The position numbers and the translations under genes were made by a program. Positions 2,081 through 32,343 of a stretch of DNA of 64,000 nucleotides are shown piece by piece; the first letter of the stretch is position 1, and each line of letters starts with the position of its first letter. The notes beneath the pieces were generated by a model. It had not been told where the DNA came from. It ran no database searches and was given only the letters and a program-made list of their open reading frames with translations. Origin of the DNA: a virus (lineage: Duplodnaviria; Heunggongvirae; Uroviricota; Caudoviricetes); the IMG/VR virus record IMGVR_UViG_3300021400_002728, positions 293,154 to 357,153 of that record; one strand, 5' to 3'.

Positions 2081-3723
2081 TTTATTTCCTTTTTATATTG
2101 CATTTTTATAGTACCACAGTCATATACTTGTAACCAGCCACATCTACGCATATTCTGAGATTCTGTTTCATTTGGGTTAAAATCAGATCCTAGCAATTTA
2201 GATAATTTATGTTTTTGTGCAGCTATACGATTAAGTGCTATATTACCTTTATAATATTTATATGATGGACCAGAGGTACTGATGATTGTAAAACCTAATG
2301 TTTTATAACCGTTTCCAGAAAATATAGCTCTATCTACATAAGATATAAGTTCAGTATATGGTTGATGTTTCATAAGTTTAGAGAACCCACCAATAACTTG
2401 AGTATTAAGTTTGGTACACATTCTAAGTAATTCTATTTCATTTTTCTTAAATCTAGAACTACCAATACATATTAACTGAACTAATTCATCATTATAGTAT
2501 AAACCTAATCTATAAGTAGATTTTACTTTTCCTTGTATATGATTGACATTTAAGAAATTGTCAGCTTCATTATGATCTACTTCTTGTATTTTACACTGTC
2601 TAGCATATATTTTAGTTTCATATTCACCTAATGCAGACAATATAATAGATTTACATATATCAGTTTTATTTATCCAGTCATAATCTGTAATATGAATCAG
2701 TCGTATACCAAGTTCTTCACATGCTATAGACTTATCTAAATGATAGTGTGACTCAGTACCAGCATTAGCTGAATGATACCAAATTCCATCTACTTCTATA
2801 GCTACTTTTATGTCTGGTAAATATACATCTAATTCTTTTGGATTAATAACTGATCTAGTATTTCTAATAATAGTTTTATTATAATGTTGTTTAACAAATG
2901 ATGCGATATTATTTTCTATAACTGACTTTCCAGTACTAGTAGGTTCATGTTTTAATATTTCATCTATATCAGAAATTTTAACATAGTATCTATCATTATA
3001 TAATAAAAGTCTATTATGAAATACTGAATCTTTTACACTATAACTTACATCTAATTCAGTTAATGGTATACATGCATTTTGACTACAGAATTCTTTACTT
3101 TTTAATTCTCTAGTTTCTTTTATTTTGGCTTGAGCTTTTTTAGACGCTCCGCCATTTTCACATCCATATCGTTCTAAGCATGTTTGCTTTATCTTATTTT
3201 TGCCATATTCTGATGCAAATATATTTTCACTACCATATTTTTCTACATTATTTTTCTTAATTTTATCTTGTATTTTTGTAGATGAAAATGGATTAATTGC
3301 ACCATATTTTCTTAGACAAGTTTCTTGTCGTTTTTTAACAGTAACTTCTGATGATATAGCATCTTTACACTTTTGTCGAGTCGAACTAAGTTGTAATATA
3401 GAAGCTACTCCATATTTTTTCATATTAGTTTCTCTTATTTTATCCATTTTTGCTTGACGCTTTTCATCAGTCATACTTGATTTAATTTTATCTTGCACAT
3501 CTGGATCTAAATTAGCACACTTAGATGAACAATATACTCTATATCCATCTATTGCACTTATAAAAGATGTAGGCTTTCCACATATTTTACATTTACCATC
3601 TGTATCAACTTTTATATATTGATCATAATAGTTTTTAGCTGTTATATTATGTGAATGTGTTAAGTGTGACGGTATGCCTAATTTATTTTTTAATTCTTTA
3701 CCACATATCTTACATATAATCAT
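2077..3723 (-). CDS. Free-standing putative homing endonuclease (C2H2/Cys-rich N-terminus, KYG-xx-N repeats, Vsr/PD-(D/E)xK-like nuclease, Hef-like C-terminal region)
   Basis: CKICGK...SHLTHSH, YCSSKC, repeated TCLxKYG units, ELDVYLPDIKVAIEVDGIWYHS. Confidence 0.75.
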   Translation of the reverse strand: MIICKICGKELKNKLGIPSHLTHSHNITAKNYYDQYIKVDTDGKCKICGKPTSFISAIDGYRVYCSSKCANLDPDVQDKIKSSMTDEKRQAKMDKIRETNMKKYGVASILQLSSTRQKCKDAISSEVTVKKRQETCLRKYGAINPFSSTKIQDKIKKNNVEKYGSENIFASEYGKNKIKQTCLERYGCENGGASKKAQAKIKETRELKSKEFCSQNACIPLTELDVSYSVKDSVFHNRLLLYNDRYYVKISDIDEILKHEPTSTGKSVIENNIASFVKQHYNKTIIRNTRSVINPKELDVYLPDIKVAIEVDGIWYHSANAGTESHYHLDKSIACEELGIRLIHITDYDWINKTDICKSIILSALGEYETKIYARQCKIQEVDHNEADNFLNVNHIQGKVKSTYRLGLYYNDELVQLICIGSSRFKKNEIELLRMCTKLNTQVIGGFSKLMKHQPYTELISYVDRAIFSGNGYKTLGFTIISTSGPSYKYYKGNIALNRIAAQKHKLSKLLGSDFNPNETESQNMRRCGWLQVYDCGTIKMQYKKEIK

Positions 3724-3747
3724 AATAAATTACTCCTTTCTATTATG

Positions 3748-3757
3748 ATTAAATAGC
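3748..3757 (-). promoter_or_regulatory. Recurrent GCTATTTAAT box abutting a -10-like hexamer (other intergenic copies: 6286-6295, 17660-17669, 21562-21571, 28402-28411, 39524-39533, 55241-55250)
   Basis: Identical 10-mer in 7 intergenic regions, same orientation, each followed by an AT-rich TATAAT-like sequence and then a gene. Confidence 0.6.
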
Positions 3758-3783
3758 CTTTAATACTATCTTAATATGCGGTA

Positions 3784-4575
3784 TTAATGAACTAATGTAT
3801 CATACATCATAACTGGTGTATTTTCTTCCATACATCCGGTACCACCGCAAATAAGTATACTGGTACTTGGTACAGTTTCATATAACTCGTCATTCTTATT
3901 TTGATCGTTAAGATACCAACCAATTGGACTGACTTTTTGCGTATTTGGATTAATCGTAAGTCCCATAGGAACGATATTCCAGAACTTATCATCATTAGGT
4001 GTAAATGAAGCTCTATTAGGAATAGGCTGTCTCTTTTTACACTCTACCATGATAACACCTTGGTCAATGAATGTTTTGATATAGTAGTAAGAATAATGAA
4101 TTGATTTATCTGACATTTCAGTAACAAATTCTTTCTTATCTACTTCCTTACCAGATCTATCATAATTGATATAGATATATCGACTATCATAGAAGATAAT
4201 TGAGGTACCCAAGCGTTTTTCAGCAATTTCATATACCCAATCATCAAAAGGTGCTTTTCTTAAAAATATCATTTTTACTAATATACCAAATGCTAAAATT
4301 ACTAATGAGATTACGACTAAACCAATACATATGTAAAGTCGATAAATCTTATTTGCAGTAATAGCTAAGAATATTGGATTCTGTGTCTTAACTGCTAAAA
4401 TTGCTGCACCAAAAGCAAGGGCAGCCATGACTAATCCGAAGATAGATAAAAATCTGCAAACCTTAAACATCTTATAGGCAATTTGATGTTTAGGTTGCAC
4501 ACCTTTTAGGACTTGGACGTCATCATGGGAATCAGCCATACTATCATGGACCTGTTTAGCTTCCTGTTGTGCCAT
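3784..4575 (-). CDS. N-terminal half of an FtsK/SpoIIIE/TcpA-like membrane ATPase fused to a 16-aa split-intein N-fragment
   Basis: Two TM helices, IVPMGL...PIGWYL...SILICGGTG (start of Walker A), then CMEENTPVMMYDTLVH-stop resembling intein block A. Confidence 0.75.
   Translation of the reverse strand: MAQQEAKQVHDSMADSHDDVQVLKGVQPKHQIAYKMFKVCRFLSIFGLVMAALAFGAAILAVKTQNPIFLAITANKIYRLYICIGLVVISLVILAFGILVKMIFLRKAPFDDWVYEIAEKRLGTSIIFYDSRYIYINYDRSGKEVDKKEFVTEMSDKSIHYSYYYIKTFIDQGVIMVECKKRQPIPNRASFTPNDDKFWNIVPMGLTINPNTQKVSPIGWYLNDQNKNDELYETVPSTSILICGGTGCMEENTPVMMYDTLVH
3787..3834 (-). mobile_element. Split intein N-fragment (Cys1, block A only)
   Basis: C-M-x-x-N-T-P-V-x-M-x-D matches intein block A pattern CLxxxTxVxxxD; begins mid P-loop (GGTG|C). 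Confidence 0.75.
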
Positions 4576-4611
4576 GTTCTTTATTTCCTTTCATTTTACT
4601 ATAATTTCCAT

Positions 4612-4977
4612 TCAATATACATCATCAACTATATGGAATACCTCTCCATCTATCATTTCGATATGTATTCGAACTGTAGTTTTAGTTGATTCTTCAAAAG
4701 ACTTAATAAACTTATCAAGAACCTTTCCATATACTGTACCAAATTTCTTTGGATCTGTAGTAGGATAACATTTACCCTTCAGCCTGCTACAATACTGATC
4801 AAATCTTTTATACCAATCAGTAGGTAGTTTTTCTACCTCTACTACATCATCTTCAAGATCATCAATACAGTCTTTGGCATCAGATTCATCAGCAGCAGAC
4901 ATAATGTAGTTACCACTTCCATCTCTAATTATACATCCATCTTCAGTTATCTGGATCTCATAACCATTGTACTGCAT
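4612..4977 (-). CDS. Hypothetical protein
   Basis: ORF with AAGGAG RBS in operon context. Confidence 0.65.
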   Translation of the reverse strand: MQYNGYEIQITEDGCIIRDGSGNYIMSAADESDAKDCIDDLEDDVVEVEKLPTDWYKRFDQYCSRLKGKCYPTTDPKKFGTVYGKVLDKFIKSFEESTKTTVRIHIEMIDGEVFHIVDDVY

Positions 4978-4991
4978 TTGTCTACTCCTTT

Positions 4992-5342
4992 CTATAGTTC
5001 ACCTTCATATATTCCTGCTTCTTTTAATTTGTTTAGCATTTCCCATTGTGCATGTGTCAAGGGTTTATCATCTGGTTTAGTAATAGCACCACTCCAAATA
5101 GATACACATCCAGACATATTACATAACCATGTAACGAAGTCGAAGTAGTAGTCCTCTGGACACATATCAGCTAACTCCGACCTCGAAACATGTAATTGAT
5201 CACAACATATAGCAATCAGTTTTTCCTGATGTGATGGTACGGCGTATTCCACTGTGCCGTCTGGGAACATAACTACTTCCAAATAGTGCACATAGTGTTG
5301 CTTATGCTGTTCAATATCAAATTTAGAATATAAATCGTACAT
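4992..5342 (-). CDS. Hypothetical protein
   Basis: ORF closely coupled to the SPFH gene. Confidence 0.65.
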   Translation of the reverse strand: MYDLYSKFDIEQHKQHYVHYLEVVMFPDGTVEYAVPSHQEKLIAICCDQLHVSRSELADMCPEDYYFDFVTWLCNMSGCVSIWSGAITKPDDKPLTHAQWEMLNKLKEAGIYEGEL

Positions 5343-5346
5343 TTAA

Positions 5347-9552: not shown

Positions 9553-10143
9553 TTAAGTTTCATATCTACCAGTATCAGTAGAAATACAGAAACATGGTAA
9601 TTCTCCAACAAGTTCAATTTTATTTATAATCATTCCATTACAATAAAGTTCTGCGTTATACTTACCAATAAGATAATCCATACCTTTACAAGTAAGCCAA
9701 TATGTATTCTCATCTACTTTCTGAGGTTCACTCTTAACGACAACCTGCTTAAGATAGATTCTTTTAACCTTATCAAAATGAAAATCATAAATTTCAGTTT
9801 CAGCGTTTGTTATAATAGGATCTACCTGTACATTGATAGGCTCATTATAACAGAATTTTTCTATAATTGATTTTTCTTCTAGTGTGAGTTCTTCATCACT
9901 AGAAATATCATAACTTTCCTCAAGTGGTACAAATGTACAGAACTGATCAAGTTCTGCTTTTGCTTCTTTAGGAAGTTTACTTACATCTATAAGTAATACA
10001 TGATTATAAGCGCATGTAAATTCTTCATTTCTATTATATGTGATCTTGCAGCAAAGCTCAGGATGTGTTCTATGAATCTGAGTAACTCTACTACCATCTT
10101 TCATAATATCTCCGACTTTAACGTCTTTCCACTGTTTTACCAT
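9553..10143 (-). CDS. Stand-alone intein/Hint core fragment lacking block A and block G (candidate middle piece of a three-part split intein)
   Basis: KQWKDVKVGDIMKDGSRV (post-block-A motif), EEFTCAYNHVLLI (block B His), YWLTCKGM, IINKIELVGELPCFCISTDTGRYET-stop (block F with Cys); own GGAGG RBS. Confidence 0.75.
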   Translation of the reverse strand: MVKQWKDVKVGDIMKDGSRVTQIHRTHPELCCKITYNRNEEFTCAYNHVLLIDVSKLPKEAKAELDQFCTFVPLEESYDISSDEELTLEEKSIIEKFCYNEPINVQVDPIITNAETEIYDFHFDKVKRIYLKQVVVKSEPQKVDENTYWLTCKGMDYLIGKYNAELYCNGMIINKIELVGELPCFCISTDTGRYET

Positions 10144-10507
10144 AAATTCCCTCCGATATGTCTAGTTGACTAAACTTATCATACTTATCAATATATCTAG
10201 TAAGTTTTTCATACTGTTTGAAAATATCTGTTTCTAAATAATCAAGCATAATCTGTCTAGCTTTTTCATCATCTCGTTCATAAAGCAGGATAAATTTACC
10301 ACCTAGCACAGTACCTATATCAGATTTTGCATATACTTTACCATGACCATTTTCAGCACGTGTATATACAATAATATAGTTTCCTTTTCCATATTTGTTT
10401 TCAGCAAACTTAAATGGACTAGGATCTTCTTCAGTATACTGCTCTTTTACTACTTCTATTAAACCTTTATCGTATTCAAAATAGTAGTGGTAAATGTCTT
10501 TTTTCAT
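10118..10507 (-). CDS. Hypothetical protein
   Basis: ORF with RBS; overlaps the start of the intein-core gene. Confidence 0.65.
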   Translation of the reverse strand: MKKDIYHYYFEYDKGLIEVVKEQYTEEDPSPFKFAENKYGKGNYIIVYTRAENGHGKVYAKSDIGTVLGGKFILLYERDDEKARQIMLDYLETDIFKQYEKLTRYIDKYDKFSQLDISEGIYGKTVERR

Positions 10508-24490: not shown

Positions 24491-25525
24491 CTACATAATT
24501 TCTTTTAGATAGCTAATATAGAACTCTATTTCTTGTCTAGACCATAATACTACATAATTAAGATTATTCTTCTTTGCAGTATCTCTCTTTTTTAGATCAC
24601 TTTTTGTCCAAACATTAATAGCATTAGCATATTGTTTGTGTCCATTTTTTGCCTTATCTTTCCATATAGCTAAAGTATCTAGATCTGCTTGATTATTTTT
24701 ATCAAAGAAGTGGTTATTATGTGACCAATATATGTTAAGTTCTACATAAATATCATAATCAATTAAATAAAAATCACAATAAAATGGATATTTTGCTGAA
24801 CTATATTGTGTCTTAAATCTTATACCAAGATTAGTTAATTCTTTCTCAAAATAATCTTCATCACTAGAATAATTACCATTCTGTCTCATAGTAGCATTAG
24901 CCTTTATTCTTGCATCTCTGCTATTACCTGGATTAGTTGTTCCATATTTTTTAATAGATGTAGATATAATCTTGTCTTTTACTGATGGAAGTTGATAAAC
25001 ATTAGTATATTGTTCACCATATTTGCGTTTGATTGTACTAACTATACTCTCTTTATGAGAAGCTGATTTATTATAGCAAGTCATACAACCAATTCCAATT
25101 AAATGTTTTGTAGTTTGTTGACAAACTTCACACCATTTTACTGTATCTTGTTCATGAGCTTTTTTCATATTTACTGAACCTGTTTTTAATCCTACTTTAC
25201 TAGAAGCTATTCTAGCTTTTTCAGACTTATTTCGTTCAATAATATGTTGTCTAGCTTGTTCTATATTTTTAGGATTACTTCTAAAAGTTTGACTCTGTTT
25301 TTCTATTTTGTCAGAATCTTTATTAGAACATTTACTACTACAATATGTATAAAAACCATTTGCAAGATTTATAAATTTAGTATCATTTCCGCAAACTTTA
25401 CATGTATGGTTACTGTCAATATACTGTATATAGTACAAATCAGATGACATTTTATGTGTTTGTCTAATATGTGAACTTAAAGCTTTATAGCCTATAAAGT
25501 CTTTTTCACAAATTTTACACTTCAT
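24491..25525 (-). CDS. Free-standing putative homing endonuclease (C2H2 N-terminus plus Vsr-like nuclease)
   Basis: CKICEK...SSHIRQTH, YCSSKC, KYGxxN repeats, YPFYCDFYLIDYDIYVELNIYWSH; start overlaps the stop of the fractured ATPase gene. Confidence 0.75.
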   Translation of the reverse strand: MKCKICEKDFIGYKALSSHIRQTHKMSSDLYYIQYIDSNHTCKVCGNDTKFINLANGFYTYCSSKCSNKDSDKIEKQSQTFRSNPKNIEQARQHIIERNKSEKARIASSKVGLKTGSVNMKKAHEQDTVKWCEVCQQTTKHLIGIGCMTCYNKSASHKESIVSTIKRKYGEQYTNVYQLPSVKDKIISTSIKKYGTTNPGNSRDARIKANATMRQNGNYSSDEDYFEKELTNLGIRFKTQYSSAKYPFYCDFYLIDYDIYVELNIYWSHNNHFFDKNNQADLDTLAIWKDKAKNGHKQYANAINVWTKSDLKKRDTAKKNNLNYVVLWSRQEIEFYISYLKEIM

Positions 25526-26807
25526 CTGATTGTACCTCCACAGACTGATCTATATAGATCGCTTTTCCACCACCAGTTTGATAAATATATGCTGCATCAA
25601 ACGGATATGATTCTCCTCCATTCCACTTATTATTCTTAGTATCTGTAAATAAGAATAAATGATTATCAGAGTTAATCATAAAACAACGTACAGATTTATT
25701 CTTAACTACTTTTACATCTGAAATTAAATAATCTGTAAGATTTCCAGGAATAATGTCACCAGATTTAACCTCTGATGCAGTTACTGGACATATTTTATCT
25801 TTTCGTAAAATTGCTAATTTATGCACATCATCTGCATATAAAACTATACTATCATCACTATACTGACTCATTGCCTCTAATGTAAACTTATACAGTTTAT
25901 TAGATTCATGAATTTCGTATACTGCAAGTACTTTGACTGGTTTATTTCCATATCCAAATACTTCATCACCGACTTCAATCGTCTTTATAGTTTTATATCC
26001 TTTAGTAGTAGGTACTATTGTATTTAACCCTAAAGGAGAACCTACACATAACGCCTGAGGTGCAGATGGTGTATCAACAGTTTTAGCAATTTTGCCATCT
26101 TCATATATGTAGTTAGATCTACCTTCATTCTTGATCGAGTTCAAATTCCAGGAAACTTCTCCAAGTCCTGAAAGACCAATAGGAATAAATTCAGGTGGTC
26201 TTAACCAACTACCTTTATATTTTGCAATATGAGGTGGAAGAGGTGTACCAACAAAGGCACATTCTCTTGCAGCAAAGTCAAATTCATTAACCCACTCATA
26301 GTTAGGTAGGTACTTATTCAATGACAAACACAAGTTAACTGCAACTTGTTCCTTAAACGTATTAGGATTGATCTTAATCGTGATCTTGTTAATTTTAGTA
26401 CCTTCATAACCTAGTTGGAAAGGTGGATTGTTAATGTCTTTTAATTCAAATTCGCCAGTTTCTTTATTTTTAACCTTCGAATCGTTAGAAATAACTGGCT
26501 CAAGAACTCCAAATACTGCTAGCAATTCTTCTCTTTGTTTGGCGACTATAACTTTTTTAATAGTAGCAAGAATTACCATCGTAATCAAAATACCAAATGC
26601 ATAAAGGCCTAATAATACCCAAAATATTTTATGACCTTTAAGTGGTAAAACTTGGAATAGTACACCTAAACCAAAAATTCCTACAAGTATAAGGGCATCT
26701 CTTTTTGAATATTGATAACCAACACTATTGCCGTCGCTGATGTTCAGTATTTTATTAGTCGCAAACTGAGCAATAGCAACGACTAAGAAAAATACAAATA
26801 TAAACAT
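25515..26807 (-). CDS. N-terminal half of an FtsK/SpoIIIE/TcpA-like membrane ATPase with a complete cis intein and a terminal split-intein N-fragment, both in the P-loop
   Basis: Three TM helices; FIPIGL...VSWNL...PQALCVGS|[153-aa intein]|TGGGK|AIYIDQSVEVQSDEV-stop. Confidence 0.8.
   Translation of the reverse strand: MFIFVFFLVVAIAQFATNKILNISDGNSVGYQYSKRDALILVGIFGLGVLFQVLPLKGHKIFWVLLGLYAFGILITMVILATIKKVIVAKQREELLAVFGVLEPVISNDSKVKNKETGEFELKDINNPPFQLGYEGTKINKITIKINPNTFKEQVAVNLCLSLNKYLPNYEWVNEFDFAARECAFVGTPLPPHIAKYKGSWLRPPEFIPIGLSGLGEVSWNLNSIKNEGRSNYIYEDGKIAKTVDTPSAPQALCVGSPLGLNTIVPTTKGYKTIKTIEVGDEVFGYGNKPVKVLAVYEIHESNKLYKFTLEAMSQYSDDSIVLYADDVHKLAILRKDKICPVTASEVKSGDIIPGNLTDYLISDVKVVKNKSVRCFMINSDNHLFLFTDTKNNKWNGGESYPFDAAYIYQTGGGKAIYIDQSVEVQSDEV
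25518..25562 (-). mobile_element. Candidate split-intein N-fragment (Ala1, 15 aa)
   Basis: AIYIDQSV directly after GGGK resembles Ala-start block A (ALxxDTxV) at the GK|S/T insertion site. Confidence 0.55.
25578..26036 (-). mobile_element. Mini-intein, class-3-like (Pro1, block F Cys, C-terminal Gln, +1 Thr)
   Basis: PLGLNTIVPTTKGYKTIKTIEVGDEVFG; YADDVHKL; VRCFMINSDNHLFLF; YIYQ|T; removal restores GSTGGGK. Confidence 0.85.
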
Positions 26808-26885: not shown

Positions 26886-27371
26886 CTAGGATTCTTCTAC
26901 ATCTGCAGAAAGCAACTTTCCAGTCTTTACATCAATAATTCGCTGGTTAGACGATCCTCTAAAGGCGAGTGTAGTATCTTTAAGGTCTACTCTAAATTCA
27001 CCATCAACTACTACATCAACATACTTCATTACTTCTAAGTCTTTTGAGTCTCTATATAAATTTCCAGTATAAAGCCAGATCGTTTTATCTGGAAATCTTT
27101 CTTTGAACTCTTTGCATAATTCAGTTACCTCAGGTAGATTTTTCTTGTATAATGGATCTCCACCTGAAAGAGTTAATCCATCAATTTGATCAGTTATACA
27201 GTTAAAGAGATATTCTTTAACTTCTTTTGTAAATGATTGACCAGCATTAGGATTCCAAGATTCCTTGTTATGACACTCCTTGCAATGATGATGGCAGCCT
27301 GCAACAAACAGGACAGTTCTCCAACCTTCACCATCTGCTAAGCTGGTTCGGTAAATAGTCATATAATTCAT
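26886..27371 (-). CDS. nrdG: Anaerobic ribonucleotide reductase activating protein (radical SAM)
   Basis: DGEGWRTVLFVAGCHHHCKECHN, GLTLSGGDPL, DVVVDGEF, FRGSSNQR. Confidence 0.93.
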   Translation of the reverse strand: MNYMTIYRTSLADGEGWRTVLFVAGCHHHCKECHNKESWNPNAGQSFTKEVKEYLFNCITDQIDGLTLSGGDPLYKKNLPEVTELCKEFKERFPDKTIWLYTGNLYRDSKDLEVMKYVDVVVDGEFRVDLKDTTLAFRGSSNQRIIDVKTGKLLSADVEES

Positions 27372-27691
27372 AATTTGCCTCCATTGATAGGCCACCTTTT
27401 ACCTATCAATTTTTTGTTTAATTTTATATTGTTACTTTATTTATCTAATTATTTTGAAAATAAAATTAGACTTAATATAATTGATCCAGCAATAATATAA
27501 AATATATAAGTTTATAATAAAAGAATAAATAACAAATGCTAAAAACAGTTTAGATAATGTGTGTTTGAACTCTTTCACTACAGAATCTGTATTATCAATA
27601 TTTAATTTAGCTTGTCCTCTTAATATAAATCTTATCATATCATTTATCAATGCTGAAAATTCAATTCCATTTTATAATGATGCATTGATTC

Positions 27692-28426: not shown

Positions 28427-29725
28427 TTAATCAGCGAGCTCAACAAGATATCTGCAAGCTACCTGAGCTTTATCATACACGATAACTTCATCTCTTCGAA
28501 TGTATGAAGCAGAATTTGCGTGAGCATGTACTGACTGATAACCCATCTTTCTGAACTTCTCAAACTTCTTACTGTCAAGATCACAAACACGGATTTCTCC
28601 ATTAATTCGATCGTAGTTATTAGTGCAATCAAATGAATTGCCCTTAATAACAGCATTTACAAACATCCATCTGGACTGACGATCTGAATCTCTTCTTGTA
28701 TAGTTCCAAGACTTATTAGGACTTGGTGCACTATAGATACCATCACCAAATGCAGATCCGCAATAAGCTGCGTTTGCAGGTCGAATGATAAGACCGTTTG
28801 CCATGATCGAAAGAACGTTTTCAGCACCAGTACCATGCCAGTACAACTTAATGTTTGTATCACAATCTTCAAGACCGTTGGTCTTAAGATACTCAGCAAA
28901 CTCAGTATCTCTTACCGGATTTGCAACTTTATATACATGCTTAACTCTGAAAGATCCGGAATCAGATTCTTTCTTAAGTTTATCTTCGATCATCTTAACT
29001 TCCTTAGCAGTTGCAGTAGTAAAACCAAAACCAAATGCCTGCGAAATAGTATTTACACCATCTGCATTATTAGTAGCTTTACTCTGAAGGATAATGTTAT
29101 CCAACAGTGACTGCTCATTACTGATGTACTTATCGAGATCTTCGGCTTTAGGAAGCTGTGTAGGATTATATACTGCATCTCGTACATTTTTGATCTTTCT
29201 AGGAATGATCGTCCAGATCTTTAACAGTGCTTTATTAAACTGATCTGCGCATTCTTTAATAAAGCTTGCCTTTGTCTGAGAACTATCTGCAACTCCCTTT
29301 TTCTTACACCAGTTTTTATAACTATCTGATGTAGCGAAGTCGTTCTTAACAGTAGTAAGTGTATTGATAAGATCCTGAACTTCGGCGATTGTTGCAGGAT
29401 TCAAAGTTCCGATATCAGTCTGATTAGAGACGTACTGTCTTGAAATGGCGAGTAGATGATTGAGCAGCTTCTCAATTTCTGGATCATTCTCAGGTTTGTA
29501 ACCTTTCGTAACTGTCGTCGTCTTAGAAATGTCTTGATAACCTTTCTTCACCTTTGAGTTGTACTTAGATGACCAATCCTTAATAGGATAAGTAGTCTTA
29601 GTTCCATCAGTACCAACTCTTCCCCATGTTACAGTGAAAGTTCCATCATTGTTGTCATGCATGTGATAGAACTTGTTGTGATTGTCTGCGGTTACCATAA
29701 TGAGCTTTACATCTGCATTCGCCAT
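28427..29725 (-). CDS. PARP-like ADP-ribosyltransferase with WGR, helical regulatory and catalytic domains
   Basis: HNKFY...TWGRVG (WGR); WTIIPR; LYWHGT, AFGDGIYSA, KSWNY, DEVIVY (H-Y-E triad). Confidence 0.88.
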   Translation of the reverse strand: MANADVKLIMVTADNHNKFYHMHDNNDGTFTVTWGRVGTDGTKTTYPIKDWSSKYNSKVKKGYQDISKTTTVTKGYKPENDPEIEKLLNHLLAISRQYVSNQTDIGTLNPATIAEVQDLINTLTTVKNDFATSDSYKNWCKKKGVADSSQTKASFIKECADQFNKALLKIWTIIPRKIKNVRDAVYNPTQLPKAEDLDKYISNEQSLLDNIILQSKATNNADGVNTISQAFGFGFTTATAKEVKMIEDKLKKESDSGSFRVKHVYKVANPVRDTEFAEYLKTNGLEDCDTNIKLYWHGTGAENVLSIMANGLIIRPANAAYCGSAFGDGIYSAPSPNKSWNYTRRDSDRQSRWMFVNAVIKGNSFDCTNNYDRINGEIRVCDLDSKKFEKFRKMGYQSVHAHANSASYIRRDEVIVYDKAQVACRYLVELAD

Positions 29726-31449: not shown

Positions 31450-32343
31450 TTAACAATTCGAACAAGCTGATCTAATATTTGTTACTTCTCCATGATGCTT
31501 TACACGATGCTGAACTTCATCGATCTTTCCATCATTGAATGCTGTGAGAAAATCCTCTATCATATTAGATTGATTCCATAATACAATATAATTTAATTGT
31601 TTACTATATTCTTTTTTACGTATATCTAGACTTGTCCATACATTTATAGCAATTTTGTAGTACTTACTATTTTTACTTTTCCACATATTTAATTTTTCTA
31701 TATCTTGTTCATTAGTTTCATCAAAATAATGATTATTATGCGTCCAATGGAAATTACATTCTATAAATAAATCTAATGACTTAATATAAAAATCACAATT
31801 AAATGGATAACGTTCATCAGAATATTGTCTTACTATATCAGTTTCTTTAAATATAGTTAACAAATACTCATAAAATTTATCTTCAGCTTTAGATGAACAA
31901 AACGTATTATTTTTACGTTTTGTGTCATTTTGACGTTGAATCATTTCTTTCGAATGAACTTTTTCAATAACATTAGGTTGATTAAATGGATTTTTTACAC
32001 CATATTTTAATAAACACGTTTGTTCAACTTTTTGTTTATACTTAGTTGTTTTATGTCCTTTACTAATATTATTACACCATTCTTCAGTAAAGACTCTACC
32101 TTTTAAGGCTTTAGATAAATTTTGTTTATGCTCTTTAGAATCAGGTAATTTTCCATATCTAAAACCATCAGGTAATGGTTCAGAAGCTTTTATACACTTC
32201 TGAACCATACCATTAGTTATCCATTTAGTTCCTTTAGTAAAAGAACCATAGTTTGTTCTACCTCTAATAAAACCTTCTGGAATAGTATCAGTATCATAAA
32301 ATTTTTTATCTATGATACCATTTGTATACCAATGTTTTATCAT
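31450..32343 (-). CDS. Free-standing putative homing endonuclease (WxTNG repeats, NUMOD3-like segment, Vsr-like nuclease) ending in a duplicate NrdD C-terminus
   Basis: WYTNG/WITNG repeats, YPFNCDFYIKSLDLFIECNFHWTH; C-terminal AFNDGKIDEVQHRVKHHG; TAATG overlap with the nrdD stop. Confidence 0.78.
   Translation of the reverse strand: MIKHWYTNGIIDKKFYDTDTIPEGFIRGRTNYGSFTKGTKWITNGMVQKCIKASEPLPDGFRYGKLPDSKEHKQNLSKALKGRVFTEEWCNNISKGHKTTKYKQKVEQTCLLKYGVKNPFNQPNVIEKVHSKEMIQRQNDTKRKNNTFCSSKAEDKFYEYLLTIFKETDIVRQYSDERYPFNCDFYIKSLDLFIECNFHWTHNNHYFDETNEQDIEKLNMWKSKNSKYYKIAINVWTSLDIRKKEYSKQLNYIVLWNQSNMIEDFLTAFNDGKIDEVQHRVKHHGEVTNIRSACSNC

Follow-up and report, generated by a model that had tools for sequence, protein, structure and literature searches.

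Class 3 inteins are described as a monophyletic clade. Their operational definition combines the lack of an N-terminal nucleophile with a Cys at position 4 of block F (Cys F4) (Hoffmann et al.; PMC7891396), and their signature is a Trp-Cys-Thr triplet (W-C-T) at positions B12, F4 and G5. Here we describe an insertion of 153 amino acids (aa) in the Walker A loop of a fragmented FtsK-like ATPase of a tailed phage (Caudoviricetes; IMG/VR record IMGVR_UViG_3300021400_002728). The record has 394,266 bp with direct terminal repeats, and the analysed stretch of 64,000 nucleotides (nt), called the window below, corresponds to its bases 293154-357153; coordinates refer to the window unless marked as genome positions. 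With a probability that we put at roughly 0.7, the insertion is a splicing-competent cis mini-intein of class 3 type.

In the MP-Be DnaB intein, Cys F4 alone is essential at both temperatures and Thr G5 mutants are mild; Trp67→Leu is rescued at 15 °C, and Trp→Phe retains half of the splicing at 30 °C (PMC2807308; PMC5222942). AceL NrdHF splices within minutes with Met-Cys-Thr (M-C-T) and without His at positions F13 and G6 (PMC7891396). Inteins ending in Gln also splice: those of Pab and Mma PolII do so slowly, and for the one in the ribonucleotide reductase (RNR) of Chilo iridescent virus (CIV), Gln supports splicing better than Asn does (PMC4031507). This literature suggests that the substitutions found in the phage element are not disqualifying for splicing.

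Insertion site, fold and catalytic positions

The host of the insertion is an open reading frame (ORF; 25515-26807, minus strand) encoding 430 aa. The insertion comprises exactly residues 258-410 (Pro258 to Gln410), flanked in the Walker A loop by Ser257 and Thr411; its translation starts with Pro and ends with Ile-Tyr-Gln, preceded by VGS and followed by TGGGK (Table 1). A search of 5.8 billion proteins (E ≤ 0.001) gave 129 homologues, and family counts in this text derive from the best 120 of the 129. The insertion is present in 77 of them (236-753 aa) and absent from about 35 short forms (251-276 aa); a few are contiguous proteins of FtsK/SpoIIIE type. In the intein-less alleles P0032 and P0033 (274 aa), whose N-terminal parts are 95-96% identical to ours, VGS is joined directly to TGGGK, and the same junction is seen in DNA at another locus (L022). 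The junctions are unambiguous and not shiftable, because the flanking Ser is not Gln and the flanking Thr is not Pro. These alleles bear out the boundaries proposed in an initial annotation made from the letters of the sequence, with Pro as the first residue, Gln as the last and Thr at +1.

The nature of the host protein is seen from its contiguous relatives P0112 and L012, which match Pfam PF01580 (FtsK_SpoIIIE) above the cut-off (E 3e-10 and 7e-12), the match beginning at the aligned P-loop. The 430-aa protein itself has no Pfam match at E ≤ 0.1. PF14890 has no match in the genome, and PF07591 has no more than a sub-threshold match at this protein. A tblastn search of 50,697 deposited phage genomes gave no match. 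Rfam at gathering thresholds identified no RNA family across the window, and there is therefore no sign of the insertion being an intron.

The AlphaFold2 (AF2) model, based on a 66-sequence alignment, has a mean predicted local distance difference test score (pLDDT) of 91.4 and a predicted template modelling score (pTM) of 0.86. Foldseek places MchDnaB-1 (6riy, 6rix) and Msm DnaBi1 (6bs8) at the top of the PDB, followed by gp41-1; 45 PDB entries match at E ≤ 0.001, and the about 40 listed are nearly all inteins, with a few bacterial intein-like (BIL) and Hedgehog Hint domains. The best PDB matches of phmmer (6rix, 6riy, 6bs8) are the same proteins as the top fold matches. The element has the attributes of an intein: an in-frame insertion absent from near-identical homologues, a Hint fold with blocks A, B, F and G, a +1 nucleophile (Thr411) and a cyclisable C-terminal residue (Gln410; inteins in general have Asn here, and rarely Gln or Asp). 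BIL domains have no +1 nucleophile and occur in variable regions of proteins that are not conserved; this assignment was considered and ruled out, as Thr+1 is invariant and the insertion lies within Walker A.

His329 aligns in phmmer with His65 (B10) of MchDnaB-1, and Leu331 therefore occupies the Trp position B12. In Msm DnaBi1, the segment aligned with Cys375 is that of the block F Cys. Compared with the Thr-His-Asn/Thr end of the homologue P0118, our copy has Ile for Thr, Tyr for His and Gln for Asn at the aligned positions. Thus the block F Cys (77 of 77 inteins), the replacement of the block B Trp and the replacement of Thr-His-Asn by Ile-Tyr-Gln, all read initially by eye, are recovered by alignment. 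The penultimate Tyr had also been listed as a non-canonical trait; it is unremarkable, since most of the family has Tyr or Arg there and His occurs in one of the 77.

With respect to class, the element has no Cys, Ser or Thr at position 1 (Pro1), has Cys F4 and Thr+1, Ser or Thr being the preferred +1 residue of class 3, and finds its nearest matches, by sequence and by fold, among class 3 inteins. Trp B12 and Thr G5 are replaced (Leu331 and Ile408), and one of the three W-C-T positions is kept. It belongs to class 3 by the operational definition and by its nearest relatives while keeping one third of the triplet, and it is therefore named here a class-3-type variant, not a canonical member, in line with the earlier label of an atypical class 3 intein.

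The segment between blocks F and G is about 17 residues longer than in MchDnaB-1 and Msm DnaBi1, the solved class 3 mini-inteins having about 130 residues. In the AF2 model it has no regular secondary structure and a pLDDT of about 95, i.e., it is predicted to be ordered. Trp395, Gly397, Gly398 and Tyr401 in this loop are near-invariant in both clades of the family described below. The initial annotation had pointed to this extra loop at the place where a free-standing intein core ends. The loop is real, and the free core in the window (9553-10143, minus strand) terminates just past block F; the loop is not special to our copy, since it occurs family-wide.

Conservation, selection and horizontal movement

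Pro1, Asp B7, His B10, Cys F4 and His F13 are each present in 77 of 77 inteins, and Thr+1 is invariant in sample alignments of 25 and 66 sequences. Other positions vary within narrow limits: B12 is Phe (62), Leu (12), Trp (2) or Ile (1), G5 is Thr (58), Ile (13) or Val (6), and the penultimate G6 is Tyr (56), Arg (15) or another residue (6, including the single His). The last residue, G7, is Asn in 65 and Gln in 12 inteins and nothing else. Judged from these sequences, the family norm is an F-C-T triplet with a Tyr/Arg-Asn end, rather than W-C-T.

Our copy belongs to a monophyletic group of 13 proteins (clade A) with intein identity down to 63%, characterized by L-C-I and a Tyr-Gln end; the Asn-ending inteins at the same site in other jumbo phages, such as that of P0118, are called clade B. 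The sole exception in clade A, P0002, is nested within the clade and has its Gln reverted to Asn. Asn is encoded by AAT or AAC and Gln by CAA, and each switch thus needs two substitutions. The last ten intein residues are nearly invariant within clade A, and 19 positions differ systematically between the clades. These include a swap of Phe-Leu and Leu-Phe at intein positions 51/53 and Ile→Phe changes at F5, beside Cys F4, and at position 130. Such clade-specific swaps point to a core repacked around the active site, not to random decay.

A search with the intein only against 1.84 billion representative proteins gave 126 matches at E ≤ 0.001, and among the near-full-length matches the Gln end was found in clade A only. 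A degenerate DNA pattern for the clade A block G end was found in one contig only (L009) among the viral contigs, and gave no match in the genome contig set. Three free-standing homologues of 149-170 aa (P0122, P0125, P0131) have almost no exteins, and in some of them Lys or Asp replaces the terminal Asn. Truncation at a contig edge, decay or a stand-alone Hint protein could each account for them.

Codon-level comparisons by Nei-Gojobori counts used our copy and the two clade A copies with DNA, L009 and L016, which come from different metagenomes. The intein differs from L009 by 15 synonymous and 6 nonsynonymous changes (nonsynonymous to synonymous rate ratio, dN/dS, 0.097; P under neutrality 1e-6) and from L016 by 14 and 2 (dN/dS 0.034; P 2e-8). 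Relaxed selection had been named at the outset as a sign that would speak against an active intein; the intein is under purifying selection instead (dN/dS 0.03-0.10). The host part is also strongly constrained, with N-extein dN/dS of 0.036-0.050 in the same two comparisons.

Synonymous divergence (dS) is 0.16-0.17 in the intein and 0.54 and 0.96 in the adjoining N-extein, i.e., 3-6 times lower in the intein (Fisher p 6e-5 and 8e-11). Compared with L016, nearly each third base is mismatched up to nt 771 of the gene, mismatches are sparse from nt 772, the first intein codon, and they are dense again from nt 1246, just past the conserved TGGGK. This tract of low divergence is bounded by the intein junctions, to within about 10 nt on the N side and about 20 nt on the C side. 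Protein identities to our copy are similarly incongruent. P0002 has 99% identity in the N-extein and 75% in the intein, while P0004 and P0005 have 79% and 94-95%, and P0007 and P0011 have 62% and 93%, respectively. In P0012 and P0013 the N-extein is 90-91% identical and the intein, which is that of the other clade, 40-42%; P0032 and P0033, with 95-96% in the N-extein, have none. The intein has therefore been swapped horizontally, as a unit, among diverged host alleles, and these sequences indicate that the transfer into them was recent.

Table 1. Features of the intein and its host gene in the window, with the evidence for each
Feature	Position	Strand	Residues and remarks	Evidence
N-extein	26037-26807	-	aa 1-257; N-terminal, membrane-anchored portion of FtsK/SpoIIIE-like ATPase, up to and including the first Walker A half (VGS)	
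Mini-intein	25578-26036	-	153 aa, Pro1 to Gln153 (protein 258-410); no endonuclease domain	Intein-less alleles; family hidden Markov model and alignment; AF2; Foldseek
Block B core	25815-25832	-	Asp326 (B7), His329 (B10), Leu331 (B12, Trp position of W-C-T)	phmmer alignment to MchDnaB-1
Block F	25659-25685	-	Cys375 (F4, presumed first nucleophile; 25683-25685) to His383 (F13)	Alignment with Msm DnaBi1
Block G end	25578-25586	-	Ile408 (G5), Tyr409 (G6), Gln410 (G7; codon CAA)	Alignment column counts
Micro-extein TGGGK	25563-25577	-	Five residues; Thr411 is the +1 nucleophile, remainder completes Walker A to Lys	Invariant in the family alignments; identical in intein-less alleles
Ala-start tail	25518-25562	-	15 residues resembling intein block A; putative N-tag of split intein at GK/S, not part of the cis intein	Conserved in all short forms; stop codon follows at 25515-25517
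Homing-endonuclease-like ORF	24491-25525	-	344 aa, free-standing	PHROG 3339 homing endonuclease, E 7.5e-6

The putative split intein and the downstream endonuclease gene

The ATPase piece ends 20 residues past the cis intein, and its Ala-start tail is conserved in all short forms. Outside the window, at about genome 231340-231240 (minus strand), a block-G tag of about 15 residues ending in His-Asn is followed by Ser and the post-GK ATPase sequence as in contiguous relatives. A class-3-like Hint core of 118 residues, free-standing and without the first and last strands, is encoded at genome 238536-238889 (minus strand); it has His-Gln-Trp and Cys F4. A Walker B piece of the ATPase is at genome 265.5-266.2 kb. 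The Ala-start tail, this free core and the block-G tag look like a three-piece split intein at GK/S. The Walker A loop GS-TGGGK-S would then be cut twice, at S/T by the cis intein and at K/S by the split intein, and after both splicing events the P-loop would match that of contiguous relatives such as P0112. The free cores are distant from the cis intein (E 1e-11 in hmmsearch with the family profile, about 22% identity by tblastn). An ORF at 10118-10507, considered as a free core on the basis of a weak tblastn match, was rejected, as its translation is not Hint-like.

Other breaks occur in the same and in related genes. The middle ATPase piece has a 21-nt insert (genome about 231246-231226, minus strand) with a perfect 6-bp hairpin, a GAAA loop and two in-frame stops between ATT and ATC codons, a candidate for ribosome bypass. 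An insert of about 400 non-coding nt between two exon-like parts of this piece (genome about 231160-230760, minus strand) looks like an intron. Five intein-less short forms (P0098, P0099, P0107, P0108, P0110) stop short by two or three residues, after TGG or TG, and have unrelated short tails, a sign that this P-loop has a third site of breakage or insertion. Another FtsK-like gene in the window (3784-4575) is cut likewise after GGTG and has a Cys-start tag. The contiguous relative L012 (IMGVR_UViG_3300045988_155053; 3001-5343, plus strand) is a 780-aa FtsK-like protein with two cis class-3-type inteins. The first is at our site and ends in Tyr-Asn. The second, past the Walker B/arginine-finger region, has a Pro start, W-C-T and a Thr-His-Asn/Cys end and resembles the free core of our genome; it may show the contiguous ancestor of a split form.

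The start of the downstream endonuclease ORF overlaps the stop of the ATPase piece, and such a gene lies 50 nt downstream of the intein in all three clade A loci with DNA. The gene is partial in two clade B loci and absent from 10 other intein-bearing and three intein-less loci; whole or in part it accompanies 5 of the 15 related loci with the intein and none of the three without it, an association that is suggestive only. Having no endonuclease of its own, the intein probably depends on one supplied in trans. Mobilization by this particular endonuclease can be proposed only as a hypothesis, because the gene in L016 is a different variant and many intein-bearing loci lack it. Zinc-finger homing-endonuclease-like ORFs of this type have at least 12 paralogues across the 394-kb genome, and several adjoin pieces of fragmented genes; examples in the window are at 24491-25525, about 3110-3715 and about 31560-32140. 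The neighbour gene on the other side (26886-27395, minus strand) encodes an NrdG-like radical-SAM activase (Pfam Fer4_12, E 8e-45). An ORF at 28427-29725 (minus strand) resembles, by eye, a WGR domain at its start and a PARP catalytic domain at its end.

Proposed chemistry, alternatives and related systems

The chemistry proposed for the intein is modelled on MP-Be DnaB, a class 3 intein that likewise has a Pro start and Thr+1 (PMC2807308). Cys375 (F4), aided by His329 (B10), would attack the Ser257-Pro258 bond and hold the N-extein as a thioester, which would then be passed on to the hydroxyl of Thr411 (+1). Gln410 would cyclise to a glutarimide, replacing the usual Asn succinimide, probably with the assistance of His383 (F13), which is proposed because the penultimate residue is Tyr. 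An O-to-N acyl shift would restore GS-TGGGK. The lineage has swapped accessory residues (Phe/Trp→Leu at B12, Thr→Ile at G5, Asn→Gln at G7) together with compensating core changes, and the intein DNA moves horizontally between diverged host alleles, probably via an endonuclease acting in trans. The Gln step may make splicing slower. The initial annotation had offered a new mechanistic variant as one possibility; this claims more than the data show, as Cys F4, His B10 and Thr+1 are all kept, and a new mechanism is not required because every obligatory nucleophile is present. Variant class 3 chemistry, possibly slow at Gln, fits the purifying selection, the invariant core residues, the restriction of the last residue to Asn or Gln, and the horizontal spread. 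The intein looks active and mobile, with a repacked active site and Gln cyclisation, and not decaying.

Several points weigh against a splicing-competent class-3-type intein. The sequences and the structural model establish the boundaries, the fold, the conservation, the selection and the transfer of the element, while splicing with each of its chemical steps, and the route of transfer, are what we infer from them. In MP-Be DnaB, Trp→Leu by itself abolished splicing at 30 °C (PMC2807308). Among 1702 class 3 inteins counted in a census, 1685 have W-C-T, seven F-C-V and a few other triplets, none of them L-C-I (PMC7891396, Table S1), and F-C-T, the norm of the present family, is also missing from it. 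Three of the four residues that were listed initially as departures are truly non-canonical. The codon-level tests are based on just three clade A DNA sequences, and purifying selection on a Hint domain would equally fit a cleavage-only or regulatory role.

In an alternative explanation, the element is a conditional or order-dependent processing domain, whose splicing needs a trigger (prior trans-splicing at GK/S, low temperature or redox state) or which mainly cleaves. Selection data cannot tell splicing from regulated splicing, the second intein site lies five residues downstream, and the C-extein of the precursor is just TGGGK and the 15-residue tag; the slow Gln ends of Pab and Mma PolII (PMC4031507) and the temperature dependence of MP-Be DnaB with Leu at B12 (PMC2807308) point the same way. 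However, members of this intein family interrupt both split ATPases and contiguous ones (P0118, L012), and the family is therefore not dependent on the split context, CIV RNR splices better with Gln than with Asn (PMC4031507), and the sequence has no sensor-like feature. We regard this explanation as rather unlikely. A combined scenario is more doubtful still: the lineage would have dispensed with the W and T of W-C-T and with the terminal Asn, and a slow Gln step would order cis splicing and GK/S trans-splicing, so that the ATP-binding loop would be complete only once all fragments meet.

An inactive relic would be an intein that stopped splicing on losing Thr G5 and Asn G7, the interrupted ATPase fragment being either tolerated or without function. 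This would account for a block G end with none of the canonical residues Thr-His-Asn and for a host gene broken into several distant pieces, and Arsp-FB24 Arth_1007 is a precedent for a class 3 pseudogene (PMC3196547). That pseudogene, however, lacks Cys F4 and His B10, both of which are kept here. The low dN/dS of the intein and of the N-extein (0.04-0.05), the catalytic positions invariant over 77 sequences with only Asn or Gln at the last one, the persistence of Gln across a clade with 63% intein identity, the two-step reversal to Asn and the recent transfer into diverged alleles make a relic very unlikely. It is hardly credible that the element is on its way to becoming a split intein through a break in the F-G loop, as had also been suggested at first. 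The loop does coincide with the ends of the free cores, both in the window and at genome 238536-238889, and three-piece split inteins are apparently present in the same genome. Against this, the near-invariant Trp, Gly-Gly and Tyr of the loop are conserved in both clades, the loop is predicted to be ordered, none of the 77 intein-bearing homologues terminates inside it, and the free cores are only distant relatives. The coincidence probably reflects a surface break point that is generally permissive in the Hint fold.

If the intein splices as proposed, then Cys F4, His B10 and the +1 hydroxyl suffice for the class 3 pathway, and Trp B12, Thr G5, the penultimate His and the terminal Asn are jointly replaceable in nature. 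The meaning of a class 3 signature in annotation would become narrower, and a compact 153-residue scaffold, free of Cys1 and with a different C-terminal chemistry, would be available for protein engineering. The locus is a clean natural case of an endonuclease-free mini-intein exchanged between phage genomes in junction-precise tracts, and our copy would be one half of a P-loop requiring two separate protein-splicing events.

Among described inteins, MP-Be DnaB, the founding member of class 3 (PMC2807308), is similar to ours in its phage origin, Pro1, Thr+1, obligate Cys F4, His B10 and P-loop NTPase host. It differs in its length of 341 aa, its endonuclease domain, the full W-C-T and the Asn end, whereas ours has 153 aa with Leu B12, Ile G5, Tyr G6 and Gln G7. 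MchDnaB-1 and Msm DnaBi1 (6rix, 6riy, 6bs8; PMC7664689, PMC6195587) share Asp-x-x-His in block B and Arg-Cys in block F, with template modelling scores of 0.80-0.84 on the target and 22-29% identity; they have an Ala start, W-C-T and a Thr-His-Asn end, and lack the F-G loop of about 17 residues.

AceL NrdHF (6zgq; PMC7891396), of phage-like metagenomic origin, is the active class 3 precedent for a non-Trp residue (Met) at B12 and for the absence of His at G6. In contrast to our contiguous intein with its His F13, it occurs naturally as two pieces, retains Thr G5 and an Asn end, and has no F13 His. Gln in place of Asn is found at the end of the Pab and Mma PolII inteins and of that of Chilo iridescent virus RNR (PMC4031507, PMC8175363), and glutarimide cyclisation completes their splicing, but they have Cys1 and belong to class 1. 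The literature searched contained no report of a class 3 intein that ends in Gln.

Also related are the Asn-ending clade B inteins of other jumbo phages (P0118, L014 and others), which share the GS/GA-TGGGK site, Pro1, Cys F4 and the F-G loop. Like our gene, they often have a split-intein tag five residues downstream, L014 being an Asn-ending example of the layout with two inteins in one P-loop. They are 40-47% identical to ours and differ in having F-C-T (or F-C-V, W-C-T) and a Tyr/Arg/His-Asn end.

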